From the UHGV virus genome UHGV-0176895: 34,472 nucleotides of DNA, one strand, 5' to 3'. Source of the DNA: a virus. This document shows positions 10,073 to 10,565 of the stretch, piece after piece. Position numbers and translations under genes: made by a program. Position 1 is the stretch's first letter; each line of letters opens with the position of its first letter. The notes beneath the pieces were generated by a model. The model was not told the origin of the DNA, searched no databases, and saw nothing but the letters and a program-made list of their open reading frames with translations.

Positions 10073-10092
10073 TACTGTAAATATAAACAGTG
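10073..10092 (+). promoter_or_regulatory. LexA (SOS) box TACTGTAAATATAAACAGTG upstream of the tum-like module
   Basis: CTGT-N8-ACAG with an AT-rich spacer, read at 10075..10090. It overlaps -10-like hexamers TATATA/TATACT and sits about 40 nt before the ATG at 10133. Confidence 0.75.
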
Positions 10093-10132
10093 GTTATGTA
10101 TACAGTATTGCTTTGGTGTCATAGGAGGAAAG

Positions 10133-10321
10133 ATGCAGGACTATTTTTTGGAGTCTTTGAAGCTCCAGCGCATTGATTTTTTTCTTAAGCTTGTAGCGGC
10201 TAGTGAGTGTAGTGATGAAGAGAAGGGGCTGGCCCTGCAGTGGGTTTCTGAACTAACAGATGAACTCATGGCAAAAATCAGAACCCACGAATACAACCGC
10301 TCAATGGATGTCATCAGCTGA
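10133..10321 (+). CDS. Small SOS-controlled protein, 62 aa; possibly the N-terminal part of a Tum-like antirepressor
   Basis: ATG at 10133 with AGGAGG 5-10 nt upstream, directly downstream of the LexA box. Confidence 0.6.
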   Translation: MQDYFLESLKLQRIDFFLKLVAASECSDEEKGLALQWVSELTDELMAKIRTHEYNRSMDVIS

Positions 10322-10331
10322 GGTGACTTTT

Positions 10332-10565
10332 ATGCGCATTGAAATAATGATCGATAAAGAGCAGAAGATTAGCCAGTCTACCCTGGACGCTCTGGAGTCC
10401 GAGCTTTACCGCAACCTGCGCCCCCTGTATCCCAAAACGGTAATTCGTATCCGCAAAGGTAGCTCTAACGGTGTGGAACTTACCGGACTGCAACTGGACG
10501 AAGAAAGAAAACAAGTGATGAAAATTATGCAGAAAGTGTGGGAAGACGACAGCTGGCTGCATTAA
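10332..10565 (+). CDS. DinI-family protein, 77 aa (Tum C-terminal-like)
   Basis: ATG at 10332 with AGGTGA upstream. MRIEIMIDKEQ... with an acidic W-containing C-terminus (WEDDSW) resembles E. coli DinI as I recall it. Different frame from the preceding ORF. Confidence 0.7.
   Translation: MRIEIMIDKEQKISQSTLDALESELYRNLRPLYPKTVIRIRKGSSNGVELTGLQLDEERKQVMKIMQKVWEDDSWLH

Follow-up and report, generated by a model that had tools for sequence, protein, structure and literature searches.

The window analysed here is the whole of UHGV virus genome UHGV-0176895, a stretch of 34,472 nucleotides (nt), and our subject is a short module within it that lies between replication gene A and the portal gene. 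It consists of a LexA-type box, a promoter and two open reading frames (ORFs) encoding proteins of 62 and 77 amino acids (aa), ORF62 and ORF77, which we refer to as tumA and tumB after Tum, a protein encoded by phage 186. The same position is occupied by Tum-type operons, and genes for a CI repressor and CII of the 186 type are present in the window as well. An earlier note, made from the sequence alone, had described this region as a Tum/DinI-like SOS induction module, in which a CTGT-N8-ACAG box overlaps the promoter of a 62-aa ORF that is followed 10 nt later, in another frame, by a 77-aa ORF of the DinI family. All of these coordinates and lengths are correct, and the box is present where it had been placed, with the -10 hexamer inside it. 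The elements of the module are:

10050-10055, (+) strand: -35 hexamer TTTACA of a p95-like SOS promoter, read from the sequence
10073-10092, (+) strand: LexA (SOS) box TACTGTAAATATAAACAGTG, the first six bases of which, TACTGT, are the -10 hexamer
10088-10107, (+) strand: degenerate second LexA-like half-site CAGTGGTTATGTATACAGTA, sharing 5 nt with the first box
10133-10321, (+) strand: tumA, predicted 62-aa antirepressor, ending in a TGA stop codon at 10319-10321
10332-10565, (+) strand: tumB, 77-aa DinI-family protein (Pfam DinI, PF06183)

A Shine-Dalgarno (SD) sequence, AGGAGG, precedes tumA at 10123-10128. The tumB gene is in the +1 frame relative to tumA, with exactly 10 nt between the TGA and its start codon, and its own SD sequence, GAGG (10320-10323), overlaps the tumA stop codon; because of this overlap, translation of tumB is probably coupled to that of tumA.

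The CTGT-N8-ACAG core of the LexA box, CTGTAAATATAAACAG (10075-10090), occurs once in the window, where 0.44 occurrences are expected by chance, and the bare pattern is thus weak evidence by itself. The complete 20-mer is more telling: 17 of its 20 positions agree with the LexA consensus, TACTGTATATATATACAGTA, and a match of this kind was found once in the window and never in 100 shuffles. Both parts of the promoter also persist in relatives. The -35 hexamer TTTACA is kept in 7/7 aligned relatives despite diverged surroundings, and the LexA box is retained where the flanking intergenic DNA has diverged heavily, as TACTGTATATAACAACAGTG and TACTGTAATTATAAACAGTA (Klebsiella phage ST512-KPC3phi13.6, Salmonella phage SEN8). 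The comparison was extended to 12 loci that include the remote homologues in 186, PSP3, Yersinia vB_YenM_06.16-2 and the ESSI-2 group, and in all 12 a CTGT-N8-ACAG sequence lies 25-60 nt upstream of the start of the TumA-like gene, so that a LexA box accompanies every homologue compared. In the window the two hexamers are arranged as TTTACA, 17 nt, TACTGT, while the 186 record gives TTCACA, 18 nt, TACTGT for p95 and annotates the LexA site from the p95 -10 hexamer onwards, which is the same overlap as seen here. In sequence, the geometry of promoter and LexA box is of the same design as that of 186 p95.

The second site, CAGTGGTTATGTATACAGTA, is conserved in its right half, TACAGTA, of which all relatives keep TACAG, but the left half reads GTGG instead of CTGT, and it is uncertain whether this site binds LexA or is a piece of the transcribed leader. 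A MAFFT alignment of the promoter regions had placed the 186 LexA box on CAGTGGTTATGTATACAGTA; this placement was rejected, as the -35/-10 geometry identifies the first box as the equivalent one.

Of the two proteins, ORF77 is the easier to assign. It matches PF06183 over the full domain (positions 1-63 of 63, E = 6.6e-23), it aligns over residues 1-75 with the structure of E. coli DinI (PDB code 1GHH, E = 2.7e-6), including the acidic C-terminal helix with its ...WED-DSW tail, and it shares 41% identity with 186 Tum over Tum residues 71-145. Its start codon is homologous to an internal GTG start in the 186 record, the product of which is annotated there as 'truncated Tum - modulates SOS induction'. 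By these alignments ORF77 is identified as a homologue of the DinI-like half of 186 Tum and of its truncated product. The ratio of nonsynonymous to synonymous substitutions (dN/dS) of tumB lies between 0.03 and 0.10.

Profiles were needed for ORF62, because pairwise BLASTP could not align it with 186 Tum. The protein also has no match in Pfam or PADLOC, and its RefSeq label is 'hypothetical protein'. These properties would suit a small moron or regulator with no relation to Tum, carried in an SOS operon by happenstance, with ORF77 alone, or some other factor, as the trigger of induction. At the profile level, however, ORF62 is linked to the antirepressor half of Tum. An exhaustive phmmer search over 1.84 billion representative sequences returned 66 relatives of ORF62; leaving aside a few gene calls that are extended or spurious, these are stand-alone proteins, mostly of 35-104 aa. 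When a 30-member profile of this family was compared with 186 Tum using hhalign, residues 3-44 aligned with residues 3-44 at a probability of 95.1% (E = 3.2e-8). In addition, ORF62 matches the PHROG profiles phrog_698, phrog_8554 and phrog_1993, 186 Tum matches all three, and TumA of phage PSP3 belongs to phrog_1993. Profile comparison thus places ORF62 as a remote homologue of the N-terminal, antirepressor half of 186 Tum. TumA-like genes moreover stand alone behind LexA boxes, with no DinI gene, in ESSI-2-like and Yersinia phages, which argues that TumA is an autonomous SOS effector, and deletion of the orthologue in E. coli HS abolishes induction (see below). DinI proteins act on RecA and not on repressors, which counts against ORF77 as the sole trigger. 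We therefore regard an unrelated ORF62 as very unlikely. With the antirepressor half of Tum matched by ORF62, the DinI-like half by ORF77, and a p95-like geometry upstream, the module identity proposed in the earlier note holds.

The tumA gene has a dN/dS of 0.04-0.12, and its product is 98% identical to ECHS_RS04495 (62 aa) of E. coli HS. An AlphaFold2 model of TumA (predicted local distance difference test score of 88) contains helices at residues 2-23 and 28-61, so that the protein is predicted to form a two-helix hairpin. A Foldseek search of the PDB with this model returned no significant match (best E = 2.3), and the structures listed were generic helical hairpins.

The separation of the two halves of Tum into different frames allows for three explanations, all of which had been put forward in the earlier note: a genuine two-gene version, a tum gene broken by a frameshift, or a sequencing error. 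A recently broken or mis-sequenced single gene, which would leave the induction switch defective, is suggested by the mere 10 nt and the change of frame between the two ORFs, and by 186 Tum itself, a single 146-aa protein whose halves match the two ORFs. The description of 186 Tum in the earlier note, a single protein whose C-terminus is DinI-like and whose promoter is controlled by LexA, agrees with the 186 record and with the literature (PMC3121763). The relatives of the module, however, argue strongly against breakage. A region of 720 base pairs around it is conserved at 96-98% identity in Fels-2 (96.9%), vB_EcoM-813R9, phage 500465-1 and many Klebsiella phages, and among 5426 complete E. 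coli genomes the module is present in 1143. Two genes are annotated in Fels-2, 813R9, phage 500465-1, the Klebsiella phages, E. coli HS and the E. coli genomes alike, and the two-gene layout is conserved in several genera of the Peduoviridae. It is also shared by DuoHS, the prophage of E. coli HS, which is inducible.

Conservation of the layout extends to diverged sequences. Both ORFs are retained in relatives at a synonymous divergence (dS) of about 1, where their dN/dS values are 0.03-0.12, which indicates that both are under strong purifying selection. In the diverged relatives ST512-KPC3phi13.6 and SEN8 there are still two genes, yet tumA ends in TAA, the spacer measures 11 nt, and the relative frame is +2 instead of +1. 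Each ORF has an SD sequence of its own, and no fusion of TumA with DinI was detected in the ORF62 family by the phmmer search. Longer matches in this family (123-133 aa) were considered as natural fusions, but proved to be N-terminal extensions or chimeric gene calls. Given a layout that is conserved across relatives, dN/dS of at most 0.12 in both genes and a spacer of either 10 or 11 nt, the frameshift and the sequencing error are both refuted, and we give a broken or mis-sequenced tum a practically negligible chance. What remains of the three explanations is the two-gene version, borne out by the same pair of genes in several Peduoviridae genera and more than 1000 E. coli genomes: tumA-tumB is a stable two-cistron operon.

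A tblastn search with 186 Tum across the Peduoviridae places this operon within a spectrum of forms. Fused genes are found in the 186 clade, PSP3, Midge and SW9 have an in-frame stop codon between the halves, ENT90 and the Yersinia and ESSI-2 groups carry TumA-like genes but no DinI, and the out-of-frame two-gene form is that of the Fels-2 group. In the window, the stop codon at 10319-10321 and the change of frame part the two halves, which in a 186-type Tum share a single ORF, and the module belongs to the split tumA/tumB form and not to the fused 186 form.

One record of the group departs from this pattern in detail. In CP025900.1 (Escherichia phage 500465-1), around positions 900-1340, tumA and tumB both contain several single-base insertions or deletions that none of the other relatives has, and errors of sequencing or assembly in that record are their most likely origin.

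A stable pair of genes could still give rise to a fused product. Upstream of its ATG, the tumB frame runs without a stop codon for 75 nt (10257-10331), over the last 65 nt of tumA and including a run of five A residues (10273-10277), and a programmed +1 ribosomal frameshift, for example at GCA-AAA-ATC (10271-10279), would add a Tum-like fusion protein at a low level. At a predicted 143 aa, the fusion would be close in size to the 146 aa of 186 Tum. However, 25 open codons are expected by chance with a probability that we estimate at about 30% ((61/64)^25), and in the relatives with an 11-nt spacer (ST512-KPC3phi13.6, SEN8) the tumB frame is open for just 42 nt, which leaves the A run outside. 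No stimulatory element was identified, and a run of five A residues is only a weak slippery site. In PSP3 the genes are in frame with a stop codon between them, so that no single recoding mechanism is common to the group. We consider such frameshifting highly improbable, even somewhat more so than an unrelated ORF62, and the open tumB frame upstream of the ATG is probably a matter of chance.

A two-gene Tum switch of the tumA/tumB kind has already been described, and the module is very common. The PSP3 record (NC_005340) annotates tumA as 'similar to 5' end 186 tum; UV induction of prophage', where UV stands for ultraviolet light, and tumB as 'similar to dinI and 3' end of 186 tum', and the Fels-2 record points to TumB of PSP3. 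In a passage that cites Bunny 2002, Lemire 2011 states that tum is split in two in Fels-2 and PSP3 and that the antirepressor is the upstream gene (PMC3121763); Fels-2 is treated as Tum-regulated in the same paper. Genetic data come from Ortiz de Ora et al. 2025, who deleted the 'tum' gene ECHS_RS04495 of prophage DuoHS in E. coli HS and observed neither lysis nor virion foci with mitomycin C (PMC12055606). A lexA(Ind-) allele in the DuoHS host likewise abolished mitomycin C-induced lysis and virion foci (PMC12055606).

Fels-2 (STM2728 and STM2726.1) and DuoHS (ECHS_RS04495 and ECHS_RS04500) have the same module as the window, down to the LexA box, a spacer of 10 nt and the location between gpA and the portal gene. 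Their TumA and TumB proteins are 98% and 100% identical to those of the window, and the gene following ECHS_RS04495 encodes a protein identical to ORF77. They differ from it in their CI repressors, which are just 41% (Fels-2) or 55% (HS) identical to the CI of the window, and in the DNA after tumB, where Fels-2 and HS have an orf97-like gene and the window has non-coding, structured DNA of about 300 nt followed by a cargo gene for a 454-aa protein. PSP3, a member of the genus Eganvirus together with 186, also has a split tum behind a LexA box after gene A, and its TumA family is joined to that of ORF62 via the PHROG profiles; in contrast to the window, its tumA and tumB are in one frame with a stop codon and 3 nt in between, and the identity of its TumA to ORF62 is only about 14%. 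Phage 186 resembles the window in the LexA box over the -10 hexamer TACTGT, the 186-type CI and CII, the location downstream of gene A and the homologous N-terminal antirepressor and C-terminal DinI-like segments, and it also yields a free DinI-like product from the internal GTG that corresponds in position to the ORF77 start. It differs in that both segments form one polypeptide of 146 aa with a linker of about 25 aa, where the window has two cistrons in different frames, in the low identity of the Tum N-terminus to ORF62 (about 16-19%), and in the presence of orf97 downstream, which is absent from the window. A more distant parallel is found in the dinI-gfoA/gftA operons of Gifsy-1 and Gifsy-2, which are LexA-repressed and combine a DinI homologue with a small antirepressor of a non-cleavable repressor (PMC3121763). 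Unlike in the window, dinI comes first in these lambdoid phages, and their antirepressor and repressor families are unrelated to those discussed here.

Taken together, we put at roughly 90% the probability that the region serves a Fels-2/186-like E. coli prophage as its SOS operon, in the two-gene tumA-tumB form. In the lysogen, host LexA bound at 10073-10092 would cover the -10 hexamer and the probable start site, and would thereby keep the p95-like promoter off. Upon DNA damage, activated RecA would lead to self-cleavage of LexA, the promoter would fire, and one short mRNA would give rise to TumA and TumB. TumA would then bind the 186-type CI stoichiometrically and keep it off its operators, so that the early lytic promoter becomes derepressed, while TumB would most likely modulate the activity of the RecA filament and so tune how large the SOS signal becomes or how long it lasts, as is annotated for truncated 186 Tum. 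In 186, p95 is derepressed and Tum then sequesters CI (PMC7708051); for 186 Tum this has been shown biochemically (Shearwin 1998, as cited in PMC7708051 and PMC3121763). For the phage in the window, we infer the binding of TumA to CI, the role of TumB and the translational coupling; LexA dependence and a requirement of tumA for induction by mitomycin C are to be expected by analogy with the near-identical E. coli HS prophage.

Several points weigh against this assignment and have to be taken into account. BLASTP, as noted, does not connect ORF62 with 186 Tum, and the direct hhalign comparison of ORF62 with PSP3 TumA is weak (E = 0.003, probability 10%), so that the relationship between these two proteins is one of profile triangulation. 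The assignment of PSP3 tumA as the antirepressor gene goes back to a personal communication that is reported second-hand in the passage of PMC3121763 concerned with it. The deletion of tum in HS could be partly polar on tumB if the genes are coupled, which would make the separate contributions of TumA and TumB uncertain, and the experiments as a whole concern other prophages (DuoHS, 186) and not the one in the window. A scanner for the sigma-70 consensus called no promoter, because the -10 hexamer TACTGT agrees with the consensus at just 3 of 6 positions. Finally, the role proposed for TumB derives from annotation, namely its membership in the DinI family and the remark in the 186 record.

As a discovery the module carries little weight, given its annotation in PSP3, the published account for Fels-2 and the genetic validation in E. 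coli HS. Its value lies in annotation: the 62-aa gene, which is labelled 'hypothetical protein' (RefSeq) or, in some records, 'levan regulatory protein' in more than 1000 E. coli genomes, can be named a TumA-type antirepressor with confidence, and prophages with TumA can be predicted to be SOS-inducible via LexA and not via cleavage of their repressor.

The CI repressors that accompany nearly identical TumA proteins are diverse. The CI of the window is 33% identical to 186 CI, and in phages whose TumA is 98-100% identical to that of the window, CI is just 41-55% identical overall. This divergence is unevenly distributed, as the N-terminal helix-turn-helix (HTH) domain of these repressors is 58-81% identical and the C-terminal oligomerisation domain 27-55%; in 186, where the N-terminus of Tum is remotely similar, the N-terminal domain of CI is about 40% identical. 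The pattern suggests that TumA may recognise the N-terminal domain of CI and act across CI and immunity types. That TumA is a 'master-key' antirepressor that pairs with divergent CI repressors is a tentative idea, and we think it rather less probable than its opposite. If TumA did bind the conserved N-terminal domain, an SOS-induced Fels-2-like prophage could induce in trans co-resident relatives with a different CI, TumA could also override the superinfection immunity of such relatives, and antirepressor crosstalk of the Gifsy type would extend to the common P2/186-like prophages of Enterobacteriaceae.

Some cI genes in this set are unusual in length. In the Klebsiella phages MK433580.1 and OK490431.1 the ORF containing cI is extended at its N-terminus, and in one of the two, ST11-OXA48phi15.3, this ORF (311 aa) has an apparent second copy of the HTH domain. 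These extended ORFs may result from duplication or from an effect of record boundaries.

Downstream of tumB, two RNA elements were located in the non-coding DNA:

10568-10610, (+) strand: stem-loop directly after the tumB stop codon (RNAalifold, 17 pairs)
10701-10727, (+) strand: intrinsic terminator-like hairpin GCCCGCCA-GAAC-TGGCGGGC, followed by TTTTGCG (sequence and fold)

The stem-loop shows compensatory changes at 4 pairs (ST512-KPC3phi13.6, SEN8), and the region that holds it folds with z = -3.7. It has no U-tract and is followed by the conserved sequence GGTTGAACAACGAG. It belongs to no Rfam family, and an Rfam search of the whole window matched none. The stem-loop is found at the same position as t95a of 186, but the two sequences are unrelated; it may serve as a 3' stabiliser or as a partial terminator. 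The hairpin at 10701-10727 was missed by the terminator scanner, as its 8-nt tail contains fewer than five T residues. The only terminator that the scanner called, at 10310-10327, covers the tumA stop codon and the tumB SD sequence and is probably meaningless.

The window as a whole is apparently a complete P2/186-like (Peduoviridae) prophage of E. coli, with the following landmarks outside the module:

20-586, (+) strand, and 691-1743, (-) strand: rcdA-side end of the prophage, marking integration next to rcdA
3524-4120, (-) strand: 186-type CI immunity repressor (Pfam Phage_CI_repr, E = 8e-32; Phage_CI_C, E = 1.5e-27)
4416-4979: CII (CP76) gene, from Pfam
7566-9980: replication gene A (gpA), from Pfam Phage_GPA
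12282-13310: portal gene (Q), assigned from its position and from annotated relatives

The host gene rcdA, which is 99% identical to rcdA of E. coli HS, opens the window and is followed by the integrase, and gene A is followed by the portal gene and by a full set of long structural ORFs of the late region. The HS prophage DuoHS is likewise integrated by rcdA, and the two thus share their chromosomal site, whereas their CI repressors and cargo genes differ. Between the integrase and cI, at 1827-3503 on the (-) strand, the window encodes a 558-aa protein with DUF4041 and T5orf172/MUG113 domains that matches PD-Lambda-1 of PADLOC (E = 1e-119); this gene appears to be anti-phage defence cargo at the left end of the prophage. 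Between tumB and the portal gene lies a slot for variable cargo, which holds the orf97-like gene in Fels-2 and E. coli HS and is filled in the window by the 454-aa ORF (10873-12237, (+) strand). Its product has an N-terminal coiled coil and hydrophobic, probably transmembrane segments at about residues 285-345; its sole family match is phrog_34659 (function unknown, E = 3e-86), accompanied by weak coiled-coil matches to defence proteins.

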